This document shows, piece by piece, positions 13,441 through 62,751 of a DNA stretch of 64,000 bases (position 1 is its first letter; the number at the start of each line of letters is the position of its first letter). The notes beneath the pieces were generated by a model, which was given only the letters and a program-made list of their open reading frames with translations, was not told the DNA's origin and did no database searches. The stretch comes from an uncultured Pirellulales bacterium (lineage in GTDB: Bacteria; Planctomycetota; Phycisphaerae; Sedimentisphaerales; Anaerobacaceae), in the NCBI GenBank assembly GCA_964567045.1, contig CAZMLE010000015.1, forward strand, positions 225 through 64,224, read 5' to 3'. The position numbers were made by a program, and so were the translations under genes.

Positions 13441-13482
13441 TGGCAATTGAAAATTGTAAATTGAAGATTGGAAATTGGCAAT
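13441..13482. repeat. Heptanucleotide tandem array, AT-rich class (6 units)
   Basis: TGGCAAT TGAAAAT TGTAAAT TGAAGAT TGGAAAT TGGCAAT, lying between two minus-strand genes. Confidence 0.8.
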
Positions 13483-13484
13483 GG

Positions 13485-14282
13485 TCATCGGGCGAGCTGG
13501 GCGGGTCTCGGCGCCTGGTAATACCGCGCCATCGAGTCGCATAGTTGCTGCAGGACTTTTCGCCCGTCAGGATTTGCTTCTAATCCGACAAATTGCAGGC
13601 CCAGATGAATCGTTTTTTCATCTGTGCTAGGCAAGACCTCTCTGACCTTAGCATCGAGCGTTATAGTCTGGTCGATCGGAGTCTCTATCAACACCAACCT
13701 GACGAACTGGTTCTGCTCGAAATCCGGCCTTTCTGCAGCGTTGACCGCAATTTTTGCCCCTGCTTGCGAAATGTCGACAAGCTTTGCCTGCCAGTACCGT
13801 TCGGGCAGGCCTTTGTCATCGTTATTCTCAGGGCCCTTATGCCAAATCAAAGCCTTCGCCTCCAGTTTGCTGACGTCCAGGCGAAAGTAGCTTCTTCTTT
13901 CGACTTGTTCGCCGTTTTCGGCGTCCTGGAGTTTTATAGTCCCGCCTTGTTCGGCAGCTTCTGATGCCTCCAGGACGACCGCTGCTTTCTGAGCGTCCTG
14001 GAATATTCTGTCAAAACCGATGGCCTCAAATATGTCTCTTGTAATGGGAGCGACCTTGCAGAAAGCCAGACGGTGCCCCAGGCACGTCAGAGTTTTATGT
14101 AATTTCGTCAACTGACACAGAGTCAGGCATGTGACTCGTTCTACTCTGGAGAAATCCAGTATTACGTCAGAATCGGGTTTCTCATAGACGGTGTCTATCA
14201 CGGTCTCTAATTCGTTGCTGGTGTGGGGTTCGCCCGGCAACTGTACGATAATAATATCGCCGGACCAACTTCGGACAGTCAT
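13485..14282 (-). CDS. STAS (anti-sigma antagonist-like) plus PilZ domain protein
   Basis: N-terminal STAS pattern (IIIVQLPGEP..LDFSRVERVT..ITRDIFEAIGFDRIF). C-terminal PilZ motifs RRSYFRL and DISQAG. ATG 14282 preferred over the track TTG. Confidence 0.7.
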   Translation of the reverse strand: MTVRSWSGDIIIVQLPGEPHTSNELETVIDTVYEKPDSDVILDFSRVERVTCLTLCQLTKLHKTLTCLGHRLAFCKVAPITRDIFEAIGFDRIFQDAQKAAVVLEASEAAEQGGTIKLQDAENGEQVERRSYFRLDVSKLEAKALIWHKGPENNDDKGLPERYWQAKLVDISQAGAKIAVNAAERPDFEQNQFVRLVLIETPIDQTITLDAKVREVLPSTDEKTIHLGLQFVGLEANPDGRKVLQQLCDSMARYYQAPRPAQLAR

Positions 14283-14396
14283 TTTCAGATCTCCATAAAA
14301 GCTAAAGGACAATCCCCAAGGATTAGACTTATTGATTGTTATCGGTCAGATTAGGGTGCGACTTCAGCACTTTCGCCCGCGGCCCCCCTTCTTGCT

Positions 14397-14439
14397 CCCC
14401 GCGTACGCGGGGACAAGTTTACCCCTGCGCACGCAGGGG
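14397..14439. repeat. Twin GC-rich perfect palindromes
   Basis: CCCCGCGTACGCGGGG (14397-14412) and CCCCTGCGCACGCAGGGG (14422-14439). The first recurs at 21539-21557. Confidence 0.6.
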
Positions 14440-14534
14440 CAAGAAAGCAGGGGGATCGGTTGACTTGCAGTTCAATATCGTTATACTACAGCCTCGTGAG
14501 TGCTCTAATGCATCGCCAAGTGTTTGCTCCTGGC

Positions 14535-14569
14535 GAAACGAGATACGAAATACGAGCGACGATATACGA
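14535..14569 (+). repeat. Heptanucleotide tandem array, TACGA class (5 units)
   Basis: GAAACGA GATACGA AATACGA GCGACGA TATACGA, ending 4 nt before tRNA-Glu. Confidence 0.8.
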
Positions 14570-14573
14570 AGCC

Positions 14574-14646
14574 GCCCCCATCGTCTAGTGGCTTAGGATA
14601 CCGGGTTCTCATCCCGGCGACAGGGGTTCGACTCCCCTTGGGGGTA
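14574..14646 (+). tRNA. tRNA-Glu (anticodon CTC)
   Basis: Acceptor GCCCCCA/TGGGGGT. Anticodon arm CCGGG-TTCTCAT-CCCGG. T arm AGGGG-TTCGACT-CCCCT. Confidence 0.9.
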
Positions 14647-14687
14647 TTTTTTATTGAATATTGATGATTGATTATTGACTTTTTCGG

Positions 14688-15194
14688 ATGCGGCTTTTGG
14701 TGAGCGATGAAGCGGGCAAATCCGTGTTGGGTGACACTGATGAGCGGTTCATGCGGCTGGCGCTCGATCAGGCTAAGATCGCGGAGGAAAATGGCGATGT
14801 GCCTATAGGAGCGGTTATCGTTTACCAAAACCAGATAATCGGCAAGGCATACAACCAAAGAGAGCAGCTCAAAGACCCTACCGCCCACGCGGAAATAATT
14901 GCTCTGACCCAGGCGGCAGCGGCGCTTCAAAGCTGGCGATTGACCGGCTGTACAATGTATGTCACTTTAGAGCCCTGCCCGATGTGTGCCGGTGCGCTGG
15001 TGCTGGCACGAATCGACCGGCTGGTCTACGGCTGCGATGACCCAAAGACAGGCGCGTGCAAAAGCCTGTATAACATCGTACAAGATGAAAGACTCAACCA
15101 CCGCCTTGAAGTGACATCAGGAGTCTTGGCCCAGGAGTGCAGCAACCTGCTGCAAGGTTTCTTTCAGCACCGCCGAAGCGAAGATAGTCAGTAA
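14688..15194 (+). CDS. tadA: tRNA adenosine(34) deaminase
   Basis: HAEIIAL and PCPMCAGAL zinc-binding motifs. Typical size and [18 protein letters not shown]-terminus. Confidence 0.9.
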
Positions 15195-15289
15195 GGGATA
15201 GCGTAGAGCGTACAGCGTGTAGCGGATAGAACCTTTCGTCCATCGTCCATCATCGAGCGTCCCTCGTTACTCGGTGCCCGTGAGACAGC

Positions 15290-15826: not shown

Positions 15827-15850
15827 AACTTGGCCTGCCCAGGCAAAACT

Positions 15851-16784: not shown

Positions 16785-16976
16785 CTAACCGATCCGGCCG
16801 TTTTCGTTGATGTCGGTTCCGTGAAGCTCCTCGAGCTTTTTGACCAGTTCGCGCAATGTGTTCTGCGTCAATTTCAGTTGATCTTCGAGAGCTTGCACCC
16901 GGTCCTCAATAGAATCGGATTTGCGATAGTGACCATACATCAGGCCGGTCTGTACGATTTCCCAAAGAACGCCCAT
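16785..16976 (-). CDS. Small coiled-coil hypothetical protein (63 aa)
   Basis: ORF with heptad-like RVQALEDQLKLTQNTLRELVKKLEEL. Weak support. Confidence 0.3.
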   Translation of the reverse strand: MGVLWEIVQTGLMYGHYRKSDSIEDRVQALEDQLKLTQNTLRELVKKLEELHGTDINENGRIG

Positions 16977-17023
16977 TTTTCACCTCGATTTATTGTCGCT
17001 GTTTCAAATCAACTATCACGGTT

Positions 17024-17045
17024 GGTGGGCTGAAGCCCACCCTAC
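17024..17045 (-). repeat. REP hairpin variant
   Basis: GGTGGGC-tgaa-GCCCACC followed by CTAC. The reverse complement is GTAGGGTGGGC..GCCCACC. Confidence 0.6.
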
Positions 17046-17238
17046 AATTGTTCCGCCCGGATCAACGTTGTCAATCCCGCTCGTGCCGGTGATATTATGG
17101 CCGGGAGTGCCGAGAAAAGCAAGGAATCTTCGTCGGTCGTTCGTCGTATTGCGTCGTGCGGGAGGGCGGAGACCTATTCTGGCAGCACAGTGGATTCCCG
17201 CTTGCGCGGGAATGACACGATGGCTCGGCCAACTTGAG

Positions 17239-17598
17239 TTATTTACTTTTTACCGTCTCGGCCAATTCGGCGATGCGAAGCTCCAGTCTCTTTATTTCTC
17301 GCTTGATGCTGTGTTTGTGGACCATCTCCCAGGCAAAAACTTTCATGAAGCCAATAGCCAGGACGCATGGGACGAAGATGGCAGCATACATAATTTGCAG
17401 TTGCGTCTCGTCGGTCTCGAAGAACTGGATGGCGCTATACACAGCCCCAGCGAAGAAGATGATCCCCCATATCCAGACCACAACGGCGGTGGACCACATT
17501 TTCCTGCTGTAGAAATCCCTTGCCATAGACAGTATGCTGTCTTCTTTTGAGTCGTCATAGGTATCTTCGAGTATTTTTTTTATATCTTCCTCGTTCAT
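17239..17598 (-). CDS. Two-TM membrane protein co-transcribed with the ECF sigma factor (possible anti-sigma/partner)
   Basis: Starts 19 nt after the sigma-factor stop. Two TM helices, then a C-terminal coiled coil (REIKRLELRIAELAETV). Confidence 0.55.
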   Translation of the reverse strand: MNEEDIKKILEDTYDDSKEDSILSMARDFYSRKMWSTAVVVWIWGIIFFAGAVYSAIQFFETDETQLQIMYAAIFVPCVLAIGFMKVFAWEMVHKHSIKREIKRLELRIAELAETVKSK

Positions 17599-17616
17599 TT
17601 TATTTCTCCTTCATTC

Positions 17617-18146
17617 TTATTCGAAATGTTGTTGCCAAAGTTCTTTAAGTTCTTTTCTTGCATTGGCCAGCCGCGACTTAACAGTGCCACCTGGAATCTT
17701 TAAAGCTATGCTTATCTCGGAAACACTAAGCCGTTCAAAATAATAAAGATAAAGAACAGCTCTTTTTCTGATGTCTAATTTTCCCAACAGCTCTTTAACT
17801 TCGATATCCTTTTTTCCCTGTGTTGATGACCTTGAACTTCTTCGATACTGATATGTTTTACAGCTTTGTCTTTTTTTATCCAGTCGATTGACTTGTTTGT
17901 TGTTATTCTATAAGCCCATGCCTTGAAATTTGCAGGGTCGTTCAATTTTCTCAAACCTTTTATGATGCCGAGCCAGCTTTGCTGAGTAATGTCCCACGCT
18001 GCCTGGTTGTCTGAGGTCAACCTAAAAGCATGCTGCCAAAGACGTTTTTGCCATCGGCCGACAAGTTCTTCCATGGCCTTGACATCGCCATCCTGGGCAT
18101 CCATAACCAGCAACTGGTCTTCAATATTTGAAAGTTCGTTTTTCAC
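17617..18146 (-). pseudogene. ECF-type RNA polymerase sigma-70 factor interrupted by a frameshift in a homopolymer
   Basis: Region 2 (WQKRLWQHAFRLT..AWDITQQSWL..FKAWAYRITTNKSIDW) is in the track ORF 17775-18146. Region 4 (RKRAVLYLYYFERLSVSEISIALKIPGGTVKSRLANARKEL) is in another frame, down to stop 17617. The frames join if the T6 run at 17810-17815 had one more base. Confidence 0.75.
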
Positions 18147-18324
18147 TTACTTTATTAGTCTTAAATTCGGCCTGGATGGTTCATTTTGGTTCATAAAAAA
18201 GTGTAGTTACTGCGGCTCAAAAACCAATTGTAAAAATGCTTATTTATTGGTATATACTTAAAAAAGGCCAAAGATAAAAGACTAAAAACTAAATTCTAAT
18301 AACCAGCGACTATTGACCAATAAT

Positions 18325-18413
18325 GGAGAGGTGTCCGAGTGGCCGAAGGAGCACGCTTGGAAAGCGTGTGTCCCGATTAATCGGGACCGCGGGTTCGAAT
18401 CCCGCCCTCTCCG
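18325..18413 (+). tRNA. tRNA-Ser (anticodon GGA)
   Basis: Acceptor GGAGAGG/CCTCTCC. Anticodon arm CACGC-TTGGAAA-GCGTG. Long variable arm GTCCCGATTAATCGGGAC. T loop GGTTCGAATCC. Confidence 0.9.
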
Positions 18414-18523
18414 TTATGAACGAGGTGAATAACGGAAGGGAGCAGCACAACTGCTTGTGCTGCGTCGGGATGAGAAGGGTTTGGCGATGTCCTTTGGACC
18501 GACAAACCCCTGGCCCGAAAGGG

Positions 18524-18540
18524 GAATCCCACCCTCTCCG
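18524..18540 (+). repeat. Duplicate of the tRNA-Ser 3' end
   Basis: gaatcccAccctctccg versus gaatcccGccctctccg at 18397-18413: 16/17 identical, 127 bp downstream. Confidence 0.6.
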
Positions 18541-18610
18541 ATTTTATAAGGGCACAGGAGAATAAGTACGTTATCTTTTGCGTGCCCCTTGTCAGTAGGA
18601 GGTCCATTCG

Positions 18611-20245
18611 GTGCGAGTAGCATTGGGACAATTCAATGCGACGGTCGGCGATTTGGCCGGCAATGCCGAGAAGATGCGCAACATCTACGCCCAGGCACTT
18701 AAAGGCGGCGTGGACTTGCTGGCCTTTCCAGAAATGGCGGTTTGTGGATATCCGCCGGAAGACCTGCTGCTGAAAAAACACTTCGTCGAAGATGCCCGTG
18801 CGGCGGTGGAGAAACTTGCCGCTGACTGCCCGGACGCTACCCTGATAGTCGGTTTTGCTGAAAGCTATCAGGGCAAAAGGTACAATTCAGCCGGCGTGCT
18901 GCGCAAAGGCCGGATAGAGAAAATCTATCGAAAAGGTCTGCTGCCGAATTATGGCGTGTTCGATGAGCGAAGGTACTTCGAGCCTGGAACCGAGCCGCTG
19001 ATAATAAGGTTAAAAAGCCTGAATATTGCCATCACCATCTGCGAAGACCTCTGGGATATCAATTGGCTTGGGCGCTTTCTCAAGAATGTCGGCCCAATTC
19101 AGCTAATTGTTAATATTTCCGCCTCGCCCTTCCACACGGGCAAGATTACCGCAAGGCAGGAATTGCTCAGCCGATGCGCCCAAAAGTTCAACTGCGCAGT
19201 TGCCTACTGCAATCTTGTCGGCGGACAGGACGAATTGGTTTTTGACGGTCGAAGTATGTTTACCGACTCGGCAGGAAATATCATCGCCCAGGCCAAAGCA
19301 TTTGAGGAGGATTTGTTAATCACAGATATCGGGGATCGGGCATCGGGGATCGGGCATCGGGCATGCGGTCACCCAGCCGACCCTATTGAGGAAGTTTACC
19401 AGGCGCTTGTGCTTGGAACCCGAGATTATGCCCGAAAGAACGGCTTCAAGAAGGTCTTGCTGGGGCTAAGCGGAGGCATCGATTCTTCCGTCACTGCGGC
19501 TATCGCCGCTGCCGCTTTGGGACCGGAAAATGTTGTCGGAATCACAATGCCGTCAAAGTTCAACAGCCCACAGACCATTTCAGATGCCGAAAAACTGGCA
19601 AAGAATCTGGGCATCGAATTTCATACCATCCCGATTGGGCCGGTCTTAGAGCAGTTCAACAAGGTATTGCAGAGCATACCGGGCTGGGACGGTAAAGGTA
19701 TCGCCTATGAAAATCTCCAGGCCAGAATCCGGGGCACTATGCTTATGTCACTGAGCAATCGGTTGGGCTGTCTTGTACTAACCACCGGCAACAAAAGCGA
19801 GACCTCGGTTGGCTATGCGACTCTTTATGGTGACACAGCCGGCGGCTTTGCTGTGATAAAAGACGTGCCCAAGACGATGATTTATAAATTGGCCGAGCAC
19901 ATAAACAAACACGCTGGCCACGAGGTTATGCCGGCGGACGTGATCACCAGAGCACCAACAGCAGAGTTGAGGCCCAACCAAAAGGACACCGATTCACTGC
20001 CGGAGTATGACCTGCTTGATAAAATCATCGAGTTTTACGTCGAGCAGGATATGTCACCGCGCCAGATGGTTGAATCCGACCTGCCGCAAGATGTGGTCCT
20101 TAGCGTCATTCGCATGGTCGATAAAAATGAATATAAAAGAAGGCTGTCGCCGCCGGGCATAAAAATTACGCCCAAGGCCTTTGGGAAAGACCGCCGACTG
20201 CCGATAACCAACCGCTACAGTATAGTGAAAAGTGAGCTAAAATGA
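18611..20245 (+). CDS. nadE: Glutamine-dependent NAD+ synthetase (CN-hydrolase domain plus NAD synthase domain)
   Basis: N-terminal nitrilase-like domain (FPEMAVCGYP, ITICEDLW). C-terminal SGGIDSS ATP-pyrophosphatase motif. GTG start. Confidence 0.9.
   Translation: MRVALGQFNATVGDLAGNAEKMRNIYAQALKGGVDLLAFPEMAVCGYPPEDLLLKKHFVEDARAAVEKLAADCPDATLIVGFAESYQGKRYNSAGVLRKGRIEKIYRKGLLPNYGVFDERRYFEPGTEPLIIRLKSLNIAITICEDLWDINWLGRFLKNVGPIQLIVNISASPFHTGKITARQELLSRCAQKFNCAVAYCNLVGGQDELVFDGRSMFTDSAGNIIAQAKAFEEDLLITDIGDRASGIGHRACGHPADPIEEVYQALVLGTRDYARKNGFKKVLLGLSGGIDSSVTAAIAAAALGPENVVGITMPSKFNSPQTISDAEKLAKNLGIEFHTIPIGPVLEQFNKVLQSIPGWDGKGIAYENLQARIRGTMLMSLSNRLGCLVLTTGNKSETSVGYATLYGDTAGGFAVIKDVPKTMIYKLAEHINKHAGHEVMPADVITRAPTAELRPNQKDTDSLPEYDLLDKIIEFYVEQDMSPRQMVESDLPQDVVLSVIRMVDKNEYKRRLSPPGIKITPKAFGKDRRLPITNRYSIVKSELK
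19328..19369 (+). repeat. Heptanucleotide tandem array, GC-rich class, in frame inside nadE (6 units, 42 bp)
   Basis: ATCGGGG ATCGGGC ATCGGGG ATCGGGC ATCGGGC ATGCGGT. Encodes IGDRASGIGHRACG in the inter-domain linker. Confidence 0.8.
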
Positions 20246-20326
20246 CTAAAATGCCTAAAGTGAGCTAAAGGTAAAACTAACAATTTTAGGCACTTTAGGC
20301 ACTTTTAACTTTGGTCAGTCTGTCTT

Positions 20327-21679
20327 CTATCTACCTGCCAGAGCGTCTGCAATTGCCCTTGCGAAGCCGTTGGCTGCTATTGGACCGGTTGCCGTTATTA
20401 TAAGGCCGTCCCGTTCAACCGGAACGCCGGTATATCTGGCGCCGGCTCGCTCAAGTGTCACTCGTTCGGAAATGAAGCTCGTGGCTCTGACGCCGCGAAG
20501 CACACCTGCGTTGGCCAGAATCGTAGGCGCCACGGAAATCGCGGCGAGCACTTTTCGCTTTGCTGCTGCCTCGCGGGCGATATTTAGCGCCACTGGACTA
20601 TTGAAATATAGCTTTGCTCCCGGCCCTCCGACGAAAATGATTGCATCGTAGTCATCGACACTCAGGTCGGTTATCGCAACTGTGGCCTCAGCCGTGTTTC
20701 CAAGCATGCCTCTTGTGGTTCCTATCCTTGTACTGGCAACAACCGTCAGGGCACCTGTCATACCAAGAAAACGCTTGGTATCAAAAAGCTCCCCGTCTTG
20801 AAAATTCTCAGCGGGGATAATGAAGACGGCCTTTCTCGGTCTTGCGGGAATTTGCTGGGGCGGTGTTATGGTCGTTAGGTCTTGTCCTGGCCCTGTTGAG
20901 ACCTGTTCAGCCGGATAACCAACGGCAACTATGTAAAGCGGCTCGGTGTTTCTCGGCAGGTTGCATGCGCTTCTGGCATTTCTTGGGTCAAAATCGCCGA
21001 TTGCGGCAGAACCTAAGGCCAAGTTGACAGCCTGAAGCTGGATATTTTGAGCGATATGCCCTGCCTGCAATAGGATAAGCTGTCTGGCCTTACCGCTGGA
21101 ACGGATGCCAATATCTCTCAGAGAGGAGGTAAGAACAAGACAGCAGCCGGCTGAAGCCACCGCCTCGGGGTTTATGGTTGCCGCCGCCAATCCGCCTCGC
21201 GCATCCATATTCAGGGTTTGTTGCAGGCTGTGTGTATCAGGATTGTATAGATAGACTCCATCTTGCGTCGCCAGATATAACTGTATTGGGTGGGCTTCGC
21301 TCTCTGACAGGGCCGTTCGAGAACGGGTTGGCGCTGGCGCAACTGGTTGGGCCTGCCTTTCCATCGTGGCAAGACCAGCCCAGGCCAACTGCCCGATCTG
21401 AGCAGGTTTAAGGCCTTGCCCGTTAAACCGTTGCGCCCCGATGTATCGGGGCTGGTTGGCAAAGGTTTCCTCAAGGCTAAGCGAGCCGGTCAATTTTGCC
21501 TCGGGAAGCTGAATTATTTTTAGGGTTGAACCACGAGGCCCCCGCGTACGCGGGGGGACCCCGCTTCCCGGGAGGCCAGCCAAACAAATCGCCACAAGAC
21601 CCGGTAAGATTACTGCCACCGCGCAAATAAATTTGAAATTTGAAATTTGAAATTTGAAATTGCCCGATACACGTTTCAT
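20327..21679 (-). CDS. Secreted fusion of a nitroreductase/SagB-like domain and a DJ-1/PfpI-like domain
   Basis: Nitroreductase-like: LILLQAGHIAQNIQLQAVNLALGSAAIGDFD. DJ-1/PfpI-like: YDAIIFVGGPGA..VLAAISVAPTILANAGVL. Signal peptide present. The start is uncertain because the N-terminus contains repeats. Confidence 0.7.
   Translation of the reverse strand: MKRVSGNFKFQISNFKFICAVAVILPGLVAICLAGLPGSGVPPRTRGPRGSTLKIIQLPEAKLTGSLSLEETFANQPRYIGAQRFNGQGLKPAQIGQLAWAGLATMERQAQPVAPAPTRSRTALSESEAHPIQLYLATQDGVYLYNPDTHSLQQTLNMDARGGLAAATINPEAVASAGCCLVLTSSLRDIGIRSSGKARQLILLQAGHIAQNIQLQAVNLALGSAAIGDFDPRNARSACNLPRNTEPLYIVAVGYPAEQVSTGPGQDLTTITPPQQIPARPRKAVFIIPAENFQDGELFDTKRFLGMTGALTVVASTRIGTTRGMLGNTAEATVAITDLSVDDYDAIIFVGGPGAKLYFNSPVALNIAREAAAKRKVLAAISVAPTILANAGVLRGVRATSFISERVTLERAGARYTGVPVERDGLIITATGPIAANGFARAIADALAGR
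21629..21662. repeat. Heptanucleotide tandem array, AT-rich class (about 5 units)
   Basis: AAATTTG x4 plus AAATTG. Falls in codons 6-17 of the 20327-21679 ORF (NFKFQISNFKF). Confidence 0.8.
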
Positions 21680-21934
21680 TTTTCGGTCCTCCCAAGCAGA
21701 TTTTCTTGTTCATTGTTCATTGTATTTTGTTCATTGTTTTTAACTACGAACTATGAACAAAAAACTCAGAACCAGAAATGGATCCAGTCGGAGTATATTA
21801 TACATTCCGGCCTGAAAATGCGCGGACAAATAGAAAAGATTTGGCGGAAAATCCAATCCGTCACATCTCTGCCTGGGCAGGGAACCGAGCATCGAGAATC
21901 GGGGATCCAGGATGGAGACGTGTCTGTTTGTGAT

Positions 21935-24613: not shown

Positions 24614-24648
24614 GAAATTGAAGATTTTCAATTGTCGATTTTCAATTT
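24614..24648. repeat. Heptanucleotide tandem array, AT-rich class (5 units)
   Basis: GAAATTG AAGATTT TCAATTG TCGATTT TCAATTT. Confidence 0.7.
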
Positions 24649-24745
24649 CCCCCTGCTCACCCCCAGTTTATAACCCCCACAAACGAGTGTTTCCTAACAC
24701 GTTTGTCGGTCAAGTTATCGTCATATTAGCAAGGCGATTTCACTC

Positions 24746-24780
24746 AAAATTACCAATTGAAGATTGAAATTTGAGAATTT
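24746..24780. repeat. Heptanucleotide tandem array, AT-rich class (5 units)
   Basis: CAAAATT ACCAATT GAAGATT GAAATTT GAGAATT. Confidence 0.7.
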
Positions 24781-24820
24781 TATGTGCCCCGACTTGATCG
24801 GGGGCTTCTGAGTCGGCATC

Positions 24821-24849
24821 TTGACAGTTTGCCGCACATACCGTACTAT
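24821..24849 (+). promoter_or_regulatory. Sigma-70-type promoter for the membrane-protein/dxr/rseP/glyA gene string
   Basis: TTGACA (24821-24826), 17-nt spacer, TACTAT (24844-24849). First ATG at 24869. Confidence 0.5.
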
Positions 24850-48547: not shown

Positions 48548-48582
48548 GATACGAAATACGACATACAATATACGACATACGA
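48548..48582 (+). repeat. Heptanucleotide tandem array, TACGA class (5 units)
   Basis: GATACGA AATACGA CATACAA TATACGA CATACGA. Confidence 0.8.
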
Positions 48583-48586
48583 ACAA

Positions 48587-48770: not shown

Positions 48771-48799
48771 TTGACTATATGTGAACACAACAATATAGT
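48771..48799 (+). promoter_or_regulatory. Near-consensus sigma-70-type promoter with overlapping operator-like palindrome
   Basis: TTGACT (48771-48776), 17-nt spacer, TATAGT (48794-48799). Inverted repeat ACACAAC (48785-48791) / GTTGTGT (48798-48804). ATG at 48807. Confidence 0.55.
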
Positions 48800-48806
48800 T
48801 GTGTGT

Positions 48807-49253
48807 ATGATACCTGATTTCGTAGATATTGGAGGACCTTGGAATGTTTTACCTCCCGGGGTACATGTTGCAACACTTGAAGAGATCGAAAAACGTTTTG
48901 CTATATCTGACCATAGAAAATATCTCTTCTATGGATTTATAAAAGGTGTATTAGCCCTGCGTAAAGCTGGATGCCGAAAAATCTTTCTTGACGGCAGTTT
49001 TGTTACGGAAAAGCCCATACCAGGTGATTTTGATGTTTGTTGGGATCCTATGGGAGTAGACATTACAAAATTAGATCCTGTTTTTCTTGACTTTTCTGAC
49101 GGACGCAAAAAACAGAAAGAGTTCTTCCATGGAGAATTCTTTCCGGTCGGTTTTCTTGAAAAGGGCAAGAACTTCTTTTTTGATTTTTTCCAGATCGATA
49201 GATACACGGGAGACGCTAAAGGTATTATTTGTGTAAGTTTTTCCAAAATTTGA
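48807..49253 (+). CDS. Small protein with minimal nucleotidyltransferase-like motif (resembles what I recall as DUF6932)
   Basis: MIPDFVDIGGPWNVLPPGVHVATLEEIEKRF..IFLDGSFVTEKPIPGDFDVCW (G-S..D.D-like). Confidence 0.55.
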   Translation: MIPDFVDIGGPWNVLPPGVHVATLEEIEKRFAISDHRKYLFYGFIKGVLALRKAGCRKIFLDGSFVTEKPIPGDFDVCWDPMGVDITKLDPVFLDFSDGRKKQKEFFHGEFFPVGFLEKGKNFFFDFFQIDRYTGDAKGIICVSFSKI

Positions 49254-52458: not shown

Positions 52459-54243
<1,785 letters not shown>

Positions 54244-56131: not shown

Positions 56132-56373
56132 TTGTCCTTTGGCCCCCTTTTCGCATCCTGCGTTTGGATTTCTCTCCCACCCCTAATATTTTTACCGTTT
56201 AGTACGGCTTTGAGTTCGTTTTTACCCACCTCGGTCCGCGGGCTGCTAACGAGGTTACTAAATAAATATGGCCCAAGAACCGGAAAAGTCAAGCCGCCGC
56301 AAAAAACCCCGCTTTTAGCACCGCTAAGGCGATTCTCCCCCGTTTGGACACTTGGTCAAATAAGACACATCTC

Positions 56374-56443
56374 GCTGCTCGATGCTCGATACTCGATGCC
56401 AGATACGAGATACGAGTCACGGGTCACGGGCAACGAGCGAGGT
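56374..56443 (+). repeat. Heptanucleotide tandem array, TACGA class, degenerate (about 10 units)
   Basis: GCTGCTC GATGCTC GATACTC GATGCCA GATACGA GATACGA GTCACGG GTCACGG GCAACGA GCGAGGT. Confidence 0.75.
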
Positions 56444-56569
56444 CGAAGGACTTCACGAGATGCGAGCCACGAAATAGATCCTGTAGGGTATGCTCTGCAT
56501 ACCAGTCATGTAGTCCTGTAGGATATGCTGTGCATACCAAAAAACATTTCAATTTCGCACACCAAATTG

Positions 56570-57145
56570 TTATTCTCCGACACTGCTTTGAATATCGCGG
56601 AAATCCGGCGGCTCTATATTTTTTGTGGCGCAATCGCACAGCCAATCGATTTTGTAATATCCTTGCCTTACCCATTGGTGGAAACTCGAATGTGGCCAAA
56701 GATGTGGACACGCCACCAGCTTGTGTTTGACCGGATTATAATGGATGTAGTTGACGTGCTTGATCAAGTCATCTTCGCTTCTTATGGTATGCTCCCAGAA
56801 CCGTCTCTGCCATACGCCTTTCTCGCGAAATTTTTCGCGATAAGCAGGAATGGCACCTTCGCGGCCGCCTGCCATAAGCCAGGACTGAGTAAACCCTTTC
56901 TTTATGCACGACCAGCGGACGGAGAAATCTGCATCGTCCTCGGGTAGTCTCCATACACAACGCAGATGGTCAGGCATAAGTACCATAGCCAGGACATCGA
57001 AAGGCCTGTCCGCTTGCACCTGGCGGATCGATTGACGCAGGAACGAGCGGGCTTGGGAATCCTGAAATATCTTCAGACGGTTATGGGTGACAAGCGTAAA
57101 GAAGAACGTTCCACCCGGCTGATATACGCGACGATAATCCGGCAT
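56570..57145 (-). CDS. REP-associated tyrosine transposase (IS200/IS605-like Y1), copy 1, HUH motif degenerate
   Basis: GGTFFFT..DVLAMVLMPDHLRCVW (H-L-R instead of H-x-H)..RRFWEH..YIHYNPVKH. 191 aa. Confidence 0.85.
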   Translation of the reverse strand: MPDYRRVYQPGGTFFFTLVTHNRLKIFQDSQARSFLRQSIRQVQADRPFDVLAMVLMPDHLRCVWRLPEDDADFSVRWSCIKKGFTQSWLMAGGREGAIPAYREKFREKGVWQRRFWEHTIRSEDDLIKHVNYIHYNPVKHKLVACPHLWPHSSFHQWVRQGYYKIDWLCDCATKNIEPPDFRDIQSSVGE

Positions 57146-57259
57146 AACGTCAGTCCAGTCTCCTGCCGTTCATAAAAATGGTATGCACAGCATACCCTAC
57201 AAGCTTTCTATATTTTATTAGGCGCGTCTTTGTACAATGCCTTGTGCAAACAATAGAAA

Positions 57260-57643
57260 CTATTCATCTCTTTTAATGTCAATACCTCTGACGCATGCGA
57301 GCATATATAGAACTTCTGGGTCAGCACAGACCAGCTTTCTGATTTTTCGAGAAAGTCCTACTTGGTCGGACGCGCTACGCCGAACTTCTACTTCTGTTAT
57401 CTTTCCACTGGCGAGCAAAACGGGCAATGCAGCATAGACATCCACCCCAATAAGGCAAGGTTCGTTGAGAAGCTGTTGTTGTATTTCTCTGACCTCACCT
57501 ACTGTCAGATTGTCATCCATTGCAAAGACAGGGCCCATAGGTGAAGGGCGAATATCAAAATCGTACTTCTCGAGGACTACCTCGCGTATCTTGCGGTGGT
57601 CGTAAACATTAGACCACCTGAAAAGCTTGTTTAAGAAGTTCAT
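57260..57643 (-). CDS. Hypothetical protein (127 aa) between the two RAYT genes
   Basis: ORF only. No recognised motif. Confidence 0.4.
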   Translation of the reverse strand: MNFLNKLFRWSNVYDHRKIREVVLEKYDFDIRPSPMGPVFAMDDNLTVGEVREIQQQLLNEPCLIGVDVYAALPVLLASGKITEVEVRRSASDQVGLSRKIRKLVCADPEVLYMLACVRGIDIKRDE

Positions 57644-57731
57644 GAGTGCATTTCTCTTTCTGTACCTTACCGTGCTGCTCTACACGCCGAGCGTGTAGGT
57701 GCGAGTACAGCTGTTGGTCCTTATTCATAAT

Positions 57732-57773
57732 TCGTATCGCGTATCGCGTGAAGCATATCTCATATTTCGTTCG
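57732..57773 (-). repeat. Heptanucleotide tandem array, TACGA class, reverse orientation (about 6 units)
   Basis: TCGTATC GCGTATC GCGTGAA GCATATC TCATATT TCGTTCG. Confidence 0.65.
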
Positions 57774-57909
57774 GATTCCGCAACCAATTCTGGCCGTTGC
57801 CAGAGCAGCAACGGCTAAACATAGAAAACAAACGATATTATGGTCGGGATTGTCGGAAAAAACAAGAAAAAATCATGTAGGGTATGCTGTGCATACCACT
57901 TGAAAATCT

Positions 57910-58485
57910 TCATTCTCCGACATTATCTGGTATGTCGCTGAAATCCGGTGGTTTCACCCGCTGCTTGTCGCAATCACACAGCCAATCGATTTTGTAATAT
58001 CCTTCTCGTACCCATCGGTGGAAACTGGAATACGGCCATACGTGCGGGCAGGTCGCAAGATTGTGTTTGACCGGATTGTAATGAATGTAATTGACGTGCC
58101 TGATCAGGTCATTGTCATCTCTTATCAGATGCTCCCAGAACCGTCTCTGCCATACACCTTTCTCGCGCAGCTTGTCCCGATATGCTGGAATGGGTCCTTC
58201 TCGAGCGCCTGCTTTTAGCCAGGATTGAGTAAACGCTTTCTTTATGCAGGACCAGCGGACAGAGAACTCAGCATCATCGTCAGGCAGCTTCCAAATACAA
58301 TGCAGATGGTCCGGCAATAGCACCATAGCCAGCACATCAAAAGGCTTTTGTGCCTGTACTGTGCGGATCGACTGGCGCAGCAAATGCCGGGCGTGATGAT
58401 TCTGAAATATCCTCATACGTTCGTGTGTGACAACCGTAAAAAAGAACGTCCCGCCCGGCTGATATACGCGACGATAATTCGGCAT
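57910..58485 (-). CDS. REP-associated tyrosine transposase (IS200/IS605-like Y1), copy 2, motifs intact
   Basis: DVLAMVLLPDHLHCIW (HUH intact)..RRFWEH..YIHYNPVKH. 144/191 positions identical to copy 1 in my gapless manual alignment. Confidence 0.85.
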   Translation of the reverse strand: MPNYRRVYQPGGTFFFTVVTHERMRIFQNHHARHLLRQSIRTVQAQKPFDVLAMVLLPDHLHCIWKLPDDDAEFSVRWSCIKKAFTQSWLKAGAREGPIPAYRDKLREKGVWQRRFWEHLIRDDNDLIRHVNYIHYNPVKHNLATCPHVWPYSSFHRWVREGYYKIDWLCDCDKQRVKPPDFSDIPDNVGE

Positions 58486-58589
58486 AACCGATAATTTATC
58501 CCTATCAACACGTCATCTCACAGAAATGGTATGCAAAGCATACCCTACATCCGGTAAACGCTGGAATCATAAACGCCGAAGGAAATCAT

Positions 58590-59969
58590 TCAATCACGTA
58601 GGGTATGATCCGCATACCGAATCGTTTGGTCTTTCTTAAAAAATTCCTTAGTCAAGCCGAAGACAACCGGGCCTAAAAATAGTAAGGCGATCAAATTGGG
58701 TATGGCCATTAGTCCATTTAATGTGTCGGCAAGGGTCCAAACGGCCTCTAACTTTCCTAACGAGCCGAGCATAATTGGCACAAGCCACAGAATCCTATAA
58801 ACTCCCCTCGCCCTTGCGCCGAAAAGATAAGCCGAGCAGGTCTCGCCATAAAACCCCCACGCAAGTATAGTATCATAAGCAGTCAGCACCATACATAGAA
58901 CAACAATAGAAAAGCCAACCTTCGTGCCAAATACCGTTTCGAAAGCCGACATAGTAAGCAATGAACCGGTAGAGCCAGACTTCCACACGCCCGTAATTAA
59001 GATAGCCAAAGCGGTGGCGGAACAGATGATAATTGTATCGATAAATACCTCAAAGATGCCCCATAGCCCTTGCCGCACCGGATGGTCGGTCTGGGCGGTA
59101 GCATGAGCAATAGAGGCGGAACCCAATCCGGCTTCATTACTAAATACGCCTCTGGCAATACCCCAGCGAATCGCCGCTCTGACGCCGGCGCCTGCAAATC
59201 CGCCGGTCGCAGCAATAGGTGTAAGCGCCGACTTAAAAATTAAAATTAGAGTCTCAGGCAATCTATAAATATTCAGAAATATGATGATAACCGCCGCAAA
59301 AAAATAGATGATACACATGAACGGAACACAAACCATAGCCACATTGGCGATGCGTTTTATTCCGCCAACGGTAACTAAACCAACCGCCAGGATAAGGAGT
59401 ATTCCGGTAATAAGCTTGGGGATGTTAAATTCCGCTAATCCTATGGCCACGGAGTTGGCCTGGGCCATATTCCCTGCGCCAAATGCTGCTAATCCGCCTG
59501 AAACCGCGAACATCACCGCAAGAAACTTAAAGTTTTTGCCCAGCCCGCGTTCGATGTACATCATCGGTCCGCCGAGCATCGGACCTGTTGCCTGGCGTGT
59601 CCGATATGCTATTCCTAAGACCACCTCGGCGAACTTTGTCGCCATCCCGACCAATCCCGACACCCACATCCAGAATATTGCCCCTGGCCCTCCCAAGGCG
59701 ATAGCGGTAGCCACCCCCGCTATATTTCCGACGCCGACCGTGCCGGCCAGCGCCGTACTCAATGCGGCAAATGGACTAATATCTCCTTCCGCACCCTTTC
59801 TTTTTTTCCTGGCAAGGGTCTCTTTGAGCACCGCTGAGAACTTGCGAAATTGAACAAGGCCCGTGCCCAGCGTCAGATAGACCCCTATACCCACGATAGC
59901 AATGATCATCGGCGGGCCCCAGATAAAGTTGTCATTCAACCACAAATTGATTTCAAATATCCGGTTCAA
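58590..59969 (-). CDS. Alanine/glycine:cation symporter (AGCS family)
   Basis: NDNFIWGPPMIIAIVGIGVYLT..ISPFAALSTALAGTVGVGNIAGVATAI..SNEAGLGSA motifs. Start set to TTG 59969 (GTGAGGT SD 7 nt upstream). The last codons run into a REP. Confidence 0.8.
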   Translation of the reverse strand: MNRIFEINLWLNDNFIWGPPMIIAIVGIGVYLTLGTGLVQFRKFSAVLKETLARKKRKGAEGDISPFAALSTALAGTVGVGNIAGVATAIALGGPGAIFWMWVSGLVGMATKFAEVVLGIAYRTRQATGPMLGGPMMYIERGLGKNFKFLAVMFAVSGGLAAFGAGNMAQANSVAIGLAEFNIPKLITGILLILAVGLVTVGGIKRIANVAMVCVPFMCIIYFFAAVIIIFLNIYRLPETLILIFKSALTPIAATGGFAGAGVRAAIRWGIARGVFSNEAGLGSASIAHATAQTDHPVRQGLWGIFEVFIDTIIICSATALAILITGVWKSGSTGSLLTMSAFETVFGTKVGFSIVVLCMVLTAYDTILAWGFYGETCSAYLFGARARGVYRILWLVPIMLGSLGKLEAVWTLADTLNGLMAIPNLIALLFLGPVVFGLTKEFFKKDQTIRYADHTLRD

Positions 59970-60114: not shown

Positions 60115-60900
60115 CTACTTTAAGCCGAAAAACGCTCTGCTGGTGGCGGTTAGCGCCTGGGCTAAATCTTCTAAGTCCATCTGCTTTAGCTCGGCTAAGA
60201 AACGGGCGGTGTGAATCATAAGGGCAGGCTCGTTCACCTTCTGCCTTCGCATCGGCTCCGGCGACATATAGGGCGAGTCCGTCTCCAGCATCAATCTATC
60301 CACCGGCACAATCCTGGCGGCCTCCTGCTTTATATGGGCGTTCTTGAATGTCACCACGCCGGTAAAAGATATATAAAAGCCTTTGTCCAGAACGACCTTT
60401 GCCTGCTCAGCCGAGCCGCTAAAACAATGAAAAACGACTTTCTCAACAGTGCTTCGATGCTCGTTCAGGATTTGCATAGTCTCATCGAAGGCCTCTCTGC
60501 AATGGATAATAACCGGCAGCCCTAATTCGCCGGCAATTTTCAGGTGCTCGGCAAAACCCTCTTTTTGCTGCTGCCGCGGTGAGAAATCGTAATGATAGTC
60601 CAGCCCTGTTTCGCCGATGGCCACAACCTTTTTGTGCTGGGCTATCTTTTTCAGTTCGGCGAGCATCTGAGCGGTTACGGTTTTGGCATCGTGCGGATGG
60701 ATGCCGACAGCGGCGTACATATTCTCAAACCGCTCCGCAAATTCTATGGCCTTTCGGTTTTCCTGCGGGTCGGTGCCTATGGTTATCCACTCGGTGACAC
60801 CCGCAGCAATGCTGCGGGCTAAAACGCCGTCAATATCCTGCGCCAAATCCTCAAACGTCAAATGACAATGCGTATCAATCAACTTCACCGCCGACCTCAC
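60115..60900 (-). CDS. TatD-family metal-dependent hydrolase
   Basis: IDTHCHL, GETGLDY, IHCR and ETDSPY motifs. Confidence 0.9.
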   Translation of the reverse strand: MRSAVKLIDTHCHLTFEDLAQDIDGVLARSIAAGVTEWITIGTDPQENRKAIEFAERFENMYAAVGIHPHDAKTVTAQMLAELKKIAQHKKVVAIGETGLDYHYDFSPRQQQKEGFAEHLKIAGELGLPVIIHCREAFDETMQILNEHRSTVEKVVFHCFSGSAEQAKVVLDKGFYISFTGVVTFKNAHIKQEAARIVPVDRLMLETDSPYMSPEPMRRQKVNEPALMIHTARFLAELKQMDLEDLAQALTATSRAFFGLK

Positions 60901-62188
60901 GTGTGCAATCGATGATTATGTTGTCAACCATTTCTCCTGCTTTTATATGTATCACTGTTGACAGTATACTTTCGTAGTCGCCTACCTGCGGGACATAAAA
61001 CTTATCGGTGGACTTGGAAAAAGGTTTGGTCTTGTCCAACACGGCTTTCATCCAGTATTCGCCTGGGGTGACCCCTGTAATGCCGAATGGGAATTTCTGA
61101 GTATGTTCCAGGTCGTAGTTTCTAAGACTATAATCGCTGAAAGAGACTGCCAAACGCTGAACCGGGGGCTGTTTGTGCCATTGGTCTTTTGGCACCGTAC
61201 CTGGGACAAGATAAATCCACAACGTTGCTCTATTTGGGTCATCCGTTTTGGGCAATGTAACTATGCCCTCAAGCTTGCCCAGATGGTAAAGCGGCGGATG
61301 TGGCAAACCGGGTTGGGCGGTAGGTTTTCCATCCCACTTCGCCAAGATCTGTTCTGCCACCAAGCGCTTGCGGGAGGAAGAAGTGCATCGAAGCAAACGC
61401 CATGCACGCTGGTCTTGTGTTGGCATCTTCTTACTTGAAAAGCTGTTGGATTCACCGAAGTTTTCATCTGAAAGCAGTTTTTCAATCAGGGGGCGGTCAT
61501 CAGGATTTTTTAGTTCTCCCAAGAAATTATATGGATACCAATAGTATGGTGTTGCAGCCTCAATTTCTCTCAGGGCCCAGAGCCGGGCCTTTTCGTTCCA
61601 ACGCTCGACCATCTTCTCATTCATTTTGACTTCTTCGCCGGTGCTTACCTCCCACGCCAGCCAGCGGTTGCCATAAAGAAGCCGAGCACAGAAGCACAGG
61701 TGTCCGCCATAATCGTCAAGAAACATCGGCCTATAAGCCCACTGTCTGCCCGAAACGGTGCGCGAGAACAACTTCGTAAATTCTCGTTCATCAATATCGT
61801 CAGGATAATGCAATATCTGCTCTAATGAATAGTTTTTGATCACTCCTGCTTTATTATAGAAAGCTATGACATAGTCGCCAAAACCACCGTGAACGCGGCT
61901 GTTGTTCTCGTTGACCGTGACCACGTACCGACCGTCATCAGTAACAAAAACATCCTGCGGAGCGCCCTCATTGCCTAAGGTGCACTGCCAACTGATCCAC
62001 CCTTCCAGACCGCGAACGAGGAAAACCTTGAGTGTTGCCGGGCTCTTGTCTTTAGCAGGAGTCACCTGTGCGACAAACTGCTTGTTCTGCGATAAGTAAA
62101 GTTGCTCAACCGGCCTTGCCCACGTATCTGCATAGGTAACTCTGGCCAACGTAATAACCACAAGTACAAGAACAAGTATCGTTTTCAT
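60875..62188 (-). CDS. Secreted hypothetical protein
   Basis: Signal peptide MKTILVLVLVVITLARVTYA from ATG 62188. No recognised domain. Confidence 0.55.
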   Translation of the reverse strand: MKTILVLVLVVITLARVTYADTWARPVEQLYLSQNKQFVAQVTPAKDKSPATLKVFLVRGLEGWISWQCTLGNEGAPQDVFVTDDGRYVVTVNENNSRVHGGFGDYVIAFYNKAGVIKNYSLEQILHYPDDIDEREFTKLFSRTVSGRQWAYRPMFLDDYGGHLCFCARLLYGNRWLAWEVSTGEEVKMNEKMVERWNEKARLWALREIEAATPYYWYPYNFLGELKNPDDRPLIEKLLSDENFGESNSFSSKKMPTQDQRAWRLLRCTSSSRKRLVAEQILAKWDGKPTAQPGLPHPPLYHLGKLEGIVTLPKTDDPNRATLWIYLVPGTVPKDQWHKQPPVQRLAVSFSDYSLRNYDLEHTQKFPFGITGVTPGEYWMKAVLDKTKPFSKSTDKFYVPQVGDYESILSTVIHIKAGEMVDNIIIDCTREVGGEVD

Positions 62189-62292
62189 TGTATAAACCCT
62201 TCGAAGACGGGCCCGAGGGATTCCTGCCTTACCGTTATTATAGACGCGAAAAACCGGCAAAAAGTTTACAGGATTTTCTTGCTATAAGGTAT

Positions 62293-62317
62293 GCCAGTCG
62301 CCGGCACGGCGACGGCC
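62293..62317. repeat. GC-rich palindrome of the GCCGTCGCCG family
   Basis: GTCGCCG-gca-CGGCGAC with flanking GCC/GGC. Lies 7 nt downstream of the yraN stop on the minus strand. Confidence 0.55.
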
Positions 62318-62323
62318 AACCGG

Positions 62324-62689
62324 TTATAGTACAAAAGCATTTTCATAGTGCCTTACTTGCTCGCGGCCAGTTCGGCCCAGCACGATTGTCACCACGTCAA
62401 AGCGAAAGGGGCGGTCCTCTATGTGATGAGCAGCGAGAAAATAGCGTGCCGTCCGAAACAGTCTTTGTCTCTTGGGCTGTGTTACGGTCTCCTCAGGCGG
62501 GCCAAAACTTTCATCCGCTTTCGTTCTAACCTCGACGAAAACGATTGAGCCATCGCCATCGACCATGACCAGGTCGATCTCGCCGGCCTTGCAGGAAAAG
62601 TTTCGGGTGAGCGTTTTGAGGCCTTTGCTTTTGAGAATCTTCTCTCCTCGTTTTTCGCCCCATCGGCCGAGCAGCTTACGATCGGACAA
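62324..62689 (-). CDS. yraN: YraN-family (UPF0102) endonuclease-like protein
   Basis: GRWGEKRGEKILKSKGLK..NFSCKAGEIDLVMVDGDGSIVFVEVRT is the typical family pattern. Confidence 0.85.
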   Translation of the reverse strand: MSDRKLLGRWGEKRGEKILKSKGLKTLTRNFSCKAGEIDLVMVDGDGSIVFVEVRTKADESFGPPEETVTQPKRQRLFRTARYFLAAHHIEDRPFRFDVVTIVLGRTGREQVRHYENAFVL

Positions 62690-62716
62690 TAGTTTACGCC
62701 GGTTAAGCAGCAGATT

Positions 62717-62751
62717 TCGTATATCGTATATCGTATTTCGTATCTCGTTAT
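62717..62751 (-). repeat. Heptanucleotide tandem array, TACGA class, reverse orientation (5 units)
   Basis: TCGTATA TCGTATA TCGTATT TCGTATC TCGTTAT. Abuts the rplS stop codon. Confidence 0.8.

Follow-up and report, generated by a model that had tools for sequence, protein, structure and literature searches.

Short tandem arrays of seven-nucleotide units are scattered through a stretch of 64,000 nucleotides (nt) of contig CAZMLE010000015.1, the whole of which is referred to here as the window. By Pfam content its genes are ordinary chromosomal ones, among them NadE, TadA, DnaG, L19, SHMT, Dxr and two-component systems, and a scan with Rfam at gathering thresholds returned three tRNAs as the sole matches. 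Homologues of its NadE at 72–84% identity carry the names Sedimentisphaerales, Phycisphaerae or Planctomycetota, and by this resemblance the organism is a Sedimentisphaerales-like member of the Phycisphaerae (Planctomycetota), in line with the original prediction, which had called the genome planctomycete-like. The heptamer arrays are real and far beyond chance, and they belong to a known, still unexplained kind of heptanucleotide simple repeat. Reports of heptamer tandem repeats in bacteria go back to 1990.

The heptamer arrays of the window

Tandem Repeats Finder (TRF) returned 37 rows for the window, 20 of them at period 7 and 4 more at period 14 that cover the same arrays. The window has about 17 period-7 arrays in total. 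The original prediction had listed eleven, with strict 7-nt periodicity, five to ten units each and three sequence flavours. Nine of these are called at period 7 (13439–13482, 14538–14570, 19328–19364, 21629–21661, 34767–34805, 48549–48583, 56371–56430, 57733–57749 and 62717–62748). The other two, at 24614 and 24746, are weak and go uncalled in the window even at a score of 20, with only an ATT/GAT core recurring every 7 nt; their orthologues in the relatives L002 and L007, respectively, are called. Five further arrays had been missed (14651–14678, 15198–15229, 15236–15267, 21706–21758 and the weak 18270–18293). Strict periodicity holds in that the main arrays have 0% indels in TRF, but their units are degenerate, with 69–100% matches. 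Array size is 2.4–6.3 units, and the composite at 56371–56430 alone reaches about 8.5, from three words. Instead of three flavours there are more than ten different heptamer words within the 64 kb, and the supposed AT-rich class consists of several unrelated words. The features are listed below, with a strand where one was assigned.

13439–13482: ATTGNNA, 6.3 copies (TRF); takes up the 51-nt spacer from the STAS-PilZ stop codon (gene 13485–14312, minus strand) to a hydrolase open reading frame (12177–13433, minus strand)
14537–14571, plus: TACGA class, AACGAGA TACGAAA TACGAGC GACGATA TACGAAG, five cores; ends 3 nt before tRNA-Glu (14574–14646)
14651–14678, plus: TTATTGA, 4 copies (TRF); starts 5 nt after tRNA-Glu, before the TadA start codon (14688)
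15198–15229: AGCGTAG AGCGTAC AGCGTGT AGCGGAT AG (TRF); spacer between convergent genes, 4 nt after the TadA stop codon
15236–15267: TCGTCCA, 4.6 copies (TRF); spacer between convergent TadA (plus) and PEMT (minus)
18270–18293, plus: weak AAAGACTA-like array, 3.2 copies with indels, marginal (TRF); upstream of tRNA-Ser (18324–18414)
19328–19364, plus: ATCGGGG/ATCGGGC, 5.3 copies (TRF); inside the NadE coding sequence, encodes the interdomain linker DIGDRASGIGHRAC
20229–20305: hairpin of 9-nt repeats AAAGTGAGCT / TTTAGGCAC (TRF); spacer between the convergent NadE and nitroreductase genes
21629–21661, minus: perfect AAATTTG, 4.7 copies (TRF); codons 7–17 of nitroreductase/DJ-1 (NFKFQISNFKF), with the ATG at 21679
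21706–21758, minus: TTGTTCA, 4.7 copies, then inverted AACTAYG, 2.4 copies (TRF); nitroreductase 5' leader
24614–24650: weak 7/14-nt periodic segment, TTTCAATTGTCGAT twice; divergent promoter region
24746–24785: weak AATTGAA/GATTGAA array; upstream of the gene starting at 24821
34767–34805, plus: AAAACTT/AAAACTC, 5.6 copies (TRF); PMT_2 glycosyltransferase open reading frame, encodes KNLKLKTQNSKLK
48549–48583, plus: TACGA class, ATACGAN, 5 copies (TRF); between the NTP_transf_2 and DUF6932 genes
56371–56430: composite of CTCGATR, 4 copies, GATACGA, 2.3 copies, and GTCACGG, 2.7 copies (TRF); between a RAYT-like gene and dnaG
57733–57749, minus: CGTATCG, 2.4 copies, read CGATACG on the minus strand (TRF)
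62714–62748, minus: TACGA class, AACGAGA TACGAAA TACGATA TACGATA TACGAAA (TRF); from the L19 stop codon

The arrays lie predominantly between genes. They cover 427 of 9,076 non-coding nt and 128 of 54,924 coding nt, an approximately 20-fold non-coding enrichment, so that 427 of 555 array nt fall in the non-coding 14% of the window. Several touch gene ends: 2 nt past the STAS-PilZ stop codon (13439), 4 nt past that of TadA (15198) and at that of L19 (62714), the last array ending 25 nt before the start of the UPF0102 gene. The placement at gene boundaries claimed earlier therefore stands for most arrays, including the one 3–4 nt before tRNA-Glu, but three lie inside open reading frames (19328 in NadE, 21629 in nitroreductase/DJ-1, 34767 in PMT_2). 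The nitroreductase/DJ-1 start follows GGAGGA-ATG, and KNLKLKTQNSKLK forms a lysine-rich loop between two hydrophobic segments of the glycosyltransferase. The AAAACTT/AAAACTC word of the latter also makes an array at a non-orthologous site in L006 (8349–8382). Array 24746 shares the 12-mer AATTGAAGATTG with array 13439 and an 11-mer with 24614.

A promoter-like site at 14460–14487 precedes array 14537 and would put it within the pre-tRNA leader, and the minus strand of array 13439 matches TTGCCA-17-TACAAT. Promoter or terminator consensus matches were not above shuffles (14 against 12.0 and 15 against 14.0) and amount to individual coincidences only.

An excess specific to period seven

The relatives L001–L008 are syntenic contigs from independent JGI, ENA and Logan assemblies with NadE identities of 84–94%, and the repeat spectrum of the clade was taken over 130 kb of non-redundant sequence. 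An alignment-based scan of GTDB genomes supplied 80 named loci, 53 of them Phycisphaerae-like (810 kb) and 27 from other phyla (403 kb).

A strict detector (at least four copies, at least 75% matches, lower-period runs excluded, periods 4–20) found seven arrays at period 7 in the window and none at every other period. The same detector found no array in 30 dinucleotide-preserving shuffles of the window. At a looser setting the window gave eight arrays at period 7 and one at period 10. Among L001–L008, period 7 is the sole period with three or more copies (40 TRF arrays against 0 of others). Exact tandem duplications in the 130 kb, compared with the expectation from shuffles, are distributed as follows.

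Period 4: 361 observed, 385.6 expected
Period 5: 99 observed, 104.4 expected
Period 6: 35 observed, 24.8 expected
Period 7: 40 observed, 7.0 expected (5.7-fold)
Period 8: 1 observed, 2.2 expected
Period 9: 3 observed, 0.4 expected

The modest excess at periods 6 and 9 is likewise present in outgroups. The 53 Phycisphaerae-like loci yielded 45 arrays at period 7, clustered in certain genomes (L016, L025, L019, L042) and absent from many, and 35 arrays at other periods, with L032–L036 and L044–L061 among the loci poor in heptads; the 27 loci of other phyla have 12 and 19, respectively, with a heptamer duplication excess of 1.4-fold. Array density is about 2–9 per 10 kb in the clade and lower in more distant Phycisphaerae and other phyla. 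Heptamer arrays are a trait shared by this Sedimentisphaerales clade as a whole, and the excess is specific to period 7. The same arrays recur in independent metagenome assemblies and are therefore not assembly artefacts. The surplus of period 7 over other periods that the original prediction had anticipated holds across the 130 kb and across these assemblies.

Two observations concern genomes outside the clade. L086, a deltaproteobacterial metagenome-assembled genome used as an outgroup, has six heptad arrays, two of which (12590–12627 and 14779–14816) are identical 38-nt copies 2.2 kb apart; heptad-rich genomes thus occur sporadically outside the PVC group too. In some other Phycisphaerae-like loci long arrays of 17–19 units are found, with words CAAGACY or ACAGAAG (L013 6101–6218, L025 5581–5710), so a ceiling of five units is specific to the clade of the window.

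Unit-wise change between relatives

Orthologous sites, aligned with their flanking genes as anchors, differ in length by whole units. The array after tRNA-Glu is longer in the window than in L003 and L007 by exactly two TTATTGA-type units (14 nt), and the TadA/PEMT spacer is longer than in L003 by one AGCGTNN unit (7 nt). In the NadE coding sequence L003 has a two-unit seed, AAATCAAAAAT, where L002, L006 and L007 are exactly 21 nt longer, a gain of three units or seven codons (QKSKIKN). At the N-terminus of SHMT the window and L003 have AAATTCGAAATTC, and L006 has a further 21 nt, giving an array of 4.9 units. These steps of 7, 14 and 21 nt, together with growth from two-unit local seeds, argue for in-place growth by slippage. 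They bear the signatures of slipped-strand or short template-switch duplication, with the reading frame as a filter inside genes. Both the unit-number variation and the common generating mechanism put forward in the original prediction find support here.

Other changes leave the length intact. The L002 counterpart of array 21629 occupies the same 33 nt (AAATTCG AAATGCG AAATTTG AAATTTG AAATT), and the window sequence has been homogenised without length change, the differences including C-to-T at CpG; in L003 and L006 this position is filled by a similar length of sequence without repeats. Where the window has AAATTTG units (21629–21661), AAATTCG and AAATGCG units stand in the relatives (L002 3589–3621, L007 13088–13120). 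The window's words divide about evenly into those with CG and those with TG/CA at a similar position. There are hints that some of the AT-rich words may be CpG-decayed forms of CG words.

In NadE, the segment that links the glutaminase domain to the synthetase domain is a hotspot (window 19283–19420, L003 8473–8597, L006 1212–1327). Its ancestral sequence 'DGTVQVKPxQPxAPQP' has been overwritten by a different heptad array in each of three sub-lineages, with the linker length roughly maintained, and the remaining NadE homologues compared retain the ancestral linker without a heptad array.

GGGSATC array: window, P0001, P0002
AAATTCR array: P0007, P0011, P0024, P0026
GGTGYCA array: P0006, P0025, P0028

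Hairpins provide a further variation. The 9-nt-repeat hairpin at 20229–20305 has a fold energy of −24.4 kcal/mol (z −3.05), and at this NadE/nitroreductase junction an array plus inverted copy forms a hairpin in all five genomes (window, L002, L003, L006, L007), with z of −2.5 to −4.8. The words differ: CAGAATT/ATTCTGT in L002 and L007, TCAGGGA/TCCCTGA in L006 and the 9-mer TTTAGGCAC in the window. The window hairpin corresponds to the heptad-built hairpins of the four relatives. The pair of TTGTTCA and inverted AACTAYG at 21706–21758 also folds as a hairpin (z −3.45). Single arrays fold neither better nor worse than their own shuffles (z about 0 to +0.6), with no predicted secondary structure for array 13439 (z +0.4) and no significant fold for the composite at 56371–56430 (z −1.0).

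Size, conservation and orientation

Array lengths in the clade are bimodal. Above a background of about two copies there is a peak at 32–35 nt (20 of 64 arrays), which corresponds to five cores, and hardly any array is longer. Comparison array by array with relatives is all-or-none, giving either near-invariance or wholesale replacement. The arrays that persist do so where synonymous divergence is 11–27%, and their differences are given here next to those expected at the synonymous rate.

62714 against L001: 0 differences, 6.5 expected
62714 against L090: 0 differences, 9.4 expected
13439 against L094: 1 difference, 5.3 expected
13439 against L007: 1 difference, 8.0 expected
14537 against L094: 0 differences, 4.2 expected
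21706 against L002: 0 differences, 5.9 expected
15236 against L003: 1 difference, 7.0 expected
24746 against L007: 1 difference, 7.3 expected

Array 62714 matches L001 and L090 at 35/35 positions against a synonymous difference of 19–27%, and array 13439 is 50/51 identical to L007 and 43/44 to L094 at 12–18% synonymous difference. Array 14537 is identical in L094. Array 21706, without a difference in its 53 nt between the window and L002, is absent from L003 and L006. Wholesale replacement, with 15–17 differences, is seen at 14537, 14651 and 19328 against L007 and L003. A TTTCGRA array stands in L003 and L007 where the window has the TACGA array 14537. Read on the opposite strand, these arrays before tRNA-Glu (L003 961–995, L007 7161–7195) are (ATCCGAA/ACTCGAA)n, one mismatch from the window's ATACGAA, and the apparent replacement may be an in-place inversion of the array. 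The idea that arrays are uniformly fast-evolving junk, which low pooled identity had suggested, was dropped in view of the all-or-none data for individual arrays.

Orientation and distance to genes are also uneven. Upstream of open reading frames, TACGA arrays are sense in eight cases and antisense in two, small counts from loci retrieved with a pattern of our choosing, and ACTAACG-family arrays are sense in six and antisense in two, again small counts. The ends of TACGA and ACTAACG arrays often lie 11–28 nt before the start codon, just upstream of the Shine-Dalgarno sequence.

Unit order shared between sites and phyla

Some arrays at non-orthologous sites resemble each other beyond the unit word. 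Array 14537 and the reverse strand of 62714 are identical at 31 of 34 positions, the order of variant units included, and 48549 matches the reverse strand of 62714 at 26 of 29. A metagenome scan with the pattern GATACGAAATACGA-N7-TATACGA gave 14 loci, of which 2 are orthologues of window sites and at least 9 have unrelated flanks. A 34/34 identical copy of array 62714 lies in unrelated low-GC flanks in L096.

Several of the TACGA loci lie on contigs of low GC in which 7- and 8-nt arrays are extremely abundant. L097 (13,788 nt, GC 0.33) has 24 period-7 and 11 period-8 TRF rows in 13.8 kb; it is chromosomal (prs, glmU, spoVG, ksgA, dnaB, L9) and belongs to the Atribacterota by its DnaB. In the Atribacterota-like contigs L097, L098, L099, L095 and L096, nearly all of the intergenic sequence is made up of 4–5-unit arrays whose words have 7 or 8 nt, such as CCAATTGA, CCGATTGC and GGTTAGCC, with several arrays in succession upstream of housekeeping genes. 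L091 (GC 0.59), nearest to Candidatus Aureabacteria, now Auribacterota, has ATACGAN arrays. The order AGCGTAG AGCGTAC AGCGTTT AGCGTAT occurs in L097 and L098 and, apart from two changes, at 15200 in the window. ACTATTC ACTAACG ACTATTC ACTATT is common to the Phycisphaerae contig L009 and Atribacterota-like contigs, with 27 of 28 positions matching.

Comparison with known heptamer systems

The STRR sequences of heterocystous cyanobacteria (Calothrix, Anabaena, Nostoc) are tandem heptamers of several families, mainly intergenic and of unknown function, with the consensus words CCCCAGT, TTGGTCA and CAACAGT, and their arrays can be much longer. No tandem copies of these three words were found in the window, the clade or any fetched locus. 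The original prediction had described the arrays as STRR-like, which is apt for genuine heptamer tandem families mainly between genes but not for the words or the phylum, the host being no cyanobacterium.

Dedicated systems offer a different kind of precedent. The omega ribbon-helix-helix repressor of plasmid pSM19035 binds WATCACW heptads, and HutP binds UAG-N4 repeats in RNA; each acts at a dedicated locus with a word of its own, repeated directly or in inverted orientation, and sets a precedent for reading a core every 7 nt. Words homologous to theirs do not occur here, and the omega operator words AATCACA and TATCACT have no tandem copies, no search for a cognate ribbon-helix-helix protein having been made. 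Cold-shock proteins on heptamers have also been cited as precedent (PMC4679880).

The TAACTGA repeats of marine Beggiatoaceae, cyanobacteria and Bacteroidetes come in sets of two to six heptamers (MacGregor 2015, PMC4679880). They are mostly intergenic and directly before start codons, with a translational role proposed, and occasionally stand in frame in open reading frames, where they give 7-residue peptide repeats; the word is common to distant phyla without an evident transfer mechanism (PMC4679880). The arrays of the window resemble them in lying mostly between genes, in the occasional in-frame sites and in words that recur in distant phyla, and may resemble them in the position before start codons. 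They differ in that many words coexist where the TAACTGA system has one dominant word, and TAACTGA has no tandem copies in the window or clade. Since STRR, TAACTGA and omega words are all absent in tandem, the window arrays are not members of those families.

A match in word type is provided by the G-rich, quadruplex-forming GGGNATC-type heptamers of Xanthomonas and Nostoc, whose length and sequence vary between close relatives (Rehm et al. 2015, PMC4692102). Array 19328–19364, the sole one of this type in the window, reads (GGGGATC/GGGCATC)n with at least four copies of the GGGNATC word and five G-runs. It is of the same word type, but placed in the NadE coding sequence instead of between genes.

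The broadest frame is that of prokaryotic simple repeats in general. As reported through later papers, heptamers are the commonest longer-unit simple repeats in many prokaryotes, with an intergenic excess and a patchy distribution across phyla, and polymerase slippage has been proposed as their source (Mrazek et al. 2007, via PMC4679880 and PMC4692102). Within genes, according to the same secondary accounts, unit lengths that preserve the frame are tolerated (Mrazek et al. 2007, via PMC4679880 and PMC4692102), and one proposal relates period 7 to the length of DNA that the replicative polymerase holds (Mrazek et al. 2007, via PMC4679880). Heptamer over-representation has thus already been reported for bacteria, and the phenomenon as such is not new. 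The arrays of the window have indel-free head-to-tail units, an excess over composition and variation in unit number, and resemble these repeats in the dominance of tandem 7-nt units, the intergenic excess, the patchy distribution and the kept frame within genes. They differ in being short (about five cores) and degenerate instead of long and perfect, and in their density within the clade. Sedimentisphaerales were not found among the published heptanucleotide-repeat examples that we located. The original prediction knew of no planctomycete description, and our literature searches likewise gave no paper joining heptamer repeats and Planctomycetota; no open-access paper was found that describes heptamer arrays in Planctomycetota or Atribacterota, nor, in the literature searched, a description of the dense 7- and 8-nt intergenic arrays of the latter.

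Proposed growth in place and retention of a subset

The account that we prefer, held with a little more belief than doubt, has two layers, in which arrays grow unit by unit in place and a subset of them is retained by selection. The first layer, origin and resizing at the site, is largely shown by the aligned relatives. Unit-wise tandem duplication and deletion create and remodel the arrays, the steps of 7, 14 and 21 nt pointing to slipped-strand mispairing or short template switching at replication, and a two-unit seed can leap to about five. Hairpins result if both arms are there, one being the inverted copy of the other. Arrays survive where constraint on the sequence is low, in spacers between genes, in RNA leaders, and in the N-termini, loops and interdomain linkers of proteins; within genes only changes of three units (21 nt, 7 codons) persist. 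The second layer we infer from conservation, size, orientation and position. Some arrays would be kept as orientation-dependent elements in transcribed leaders, just before the ribosome-binding site or beside tRNAs, and the hairpins between convergent genes as terminator-like elements. The likeliest role of single arrays would be that of a structure-free, repetitive single-stranded platform for a putative protein partner or the ribosome.

Several points weigh against this account. Slippage is read here from sequence comparison, and in its simple form it predicts monotonic lengths and neutral substitution, neither of which is observed. The near-identity of the non-orthologous TACGA arrays 14537 and 62714, and the perfect copy in the unrelated flanks of L096, are unexpected if arrays grow independently in place. 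The argument for selection is weakened because ordinary intergenic DNA of these genomes is also more conserved than synonymous sites, and the orientation counts are small, with the TACGA loci picked by our own pattern. The platform role, considered separately, gains no special support, as single arrays are not less structured than their shuffles.

A second explanation reverses the emphasis. Here the arrays would be regulatory elements first of all, bound by an oligomeric protein, or by several, with affinity for nucleic acid and a 5-nt core recognised at each 7-nt step, and slippage would be secondary; we consider this rather unlikely. It would account for the five-core architecture with its sharp size mode, for the near-invariance of persisting arrays and for the unit order conserved in the TACGA, AGCGTA and ACTAACG families. 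It also suits the combined sense bias of 14:4 and the spacing before start codons in contigs from three phyla, a position analogous to that reported for TAACTGA repeats (PMC4679880). However, more than ten words in 64 kb would require many specific binders, arrays also occur after stop codons, within coding sequences and in both orientations, and close relatives have different words at one site (in the NadE linker and before tRNA-Glu). A candidate binder did not emerge, a partner protein not having been searched for, and the known omega heptad operators are missing here as tandems. The original prediction had named a periodic binding factor as one option; size, near-invariance, and position and orientation before start codons lean towards it for a subset of arrays only.

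It is also conceivable, if improbable, that the arrays are miniature dispersed elements of about 31–35 nt, copied by ectopic conversion or an unknown mobilisation and occasionally passed between phyla of anoxic sediments, with slippage altering them only later. The shared unit order between window sites, the L096 copy, the AGCGTA and ACTATTC/ACTAACG arrays recurring in Atribacterota-like contigs, the ATACGAN arrays of the Auribacterota-like contig and the all-or-none evolution would all fit such copying. Yet the arrays lack terminal inverted repeats and target-site duplications and have no transposase that goes with them, the window's two RAYT-like genes have REP elements of another sequence, and growth from local two-unit seeds is directly seen in NadE and SHMT. 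Six bases per unit are fixed, moreover, which makes it only moderately improbable that two arrays agree in the order of the single variable base. General sharing of words between the clade and Atribacterota-like contigs, tried as a separate line of evidence, was not significant once the searched word was left out (P = 0.12 for exact words, 0.64 with one mismatch).

A bolder combination earns similarly little credence from us. It holds that the arrays are more than microsatellites, that discrete five-core elements from a small vocabulary (ATACGAN, AGCGTAN, ACTAACG/ACTATTC and others), unit order included, are common to Planctomycetota, Atribacterota and Auribacterota as unrelated phyla of anaerobic sediments, that within the leaders of mRNAs and tRNAs they are read by the ribosome or by a periodic, oligomeric binder, and that they spread by copying between loci and genomes. 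The last explanation invokes chance, or artefacts of sequencing or assembly. Viewed in isolation, the two weakest arrays (24614, 24746) could have arisen by chance, but with empty shuffles, arrays of about 35 nt that lie below read length and the same arrays in independent assemblies from different samples and pipelines, this explanation is refuted for the main arrays and deserves practically no belief.

The clade offers a dense and tractable case: its words are numerous, its arrays are short and of defined size, and close relatives clearly differ by arrays that have been born, expanded or replaced. A number of these changes keep the reading frame of essential enzymes, and orientation and conservation leave signs of their own. 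Should complete genomes bear out five cores as the array size, a location before start codons and the sharing across phyla, the long-standing question of mutation bias against function becomes directly testable. The arrays remodel protein linkers and N-termini, and they may contribute to the heavy fragmentation of Atribacterota and Sedimentisphaerales metagenome assemblies.

Further features of the window and its relatives

Two paralogous IS200-like Y1 transposase genes lie on the minus strand at 56570–57145 and 57910–58485, encoding 191 residues each. Each is bracketed by inverted REP-like copies, TGTAGGGTATGCTCTGCATACCA, with a GTAG head and a palindrome, within 56482–58618. The region 56470–58620 has the classic REP/RAYT layout, here in a planctomycete. 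A link to the heptamer arrays was considered, since the Y1 genes adjoin TACGA arrays, and rejected, the REPs (TGTAGGGTATGC...GCATACCA), which are short intergenic repeats too, being a separate palindromic family of unrelated sequence: they carry a GTAG head and flank a Y1 gene, whereas the heptad arrays are direct repeats without self-complementarity and with a fold z of about 0.

The segment 48001–52000 is a low-GC island (GC 0.396 against about 0.50 elsewhere). Its genes include a nucleotidyltransferase (48174–48503) and DUF6932 (48771–49253), with a TACGA array in between, and it may have been acquired horizontally. Between the PEMT-side genes and NadE (window 16800–18600, L003 2885–7768), L003, L004 and L005 have extra genes compared with the window, namely an S9 peptidase and a 667-residue MmeI-like type IIG restriction-modification enzyme.

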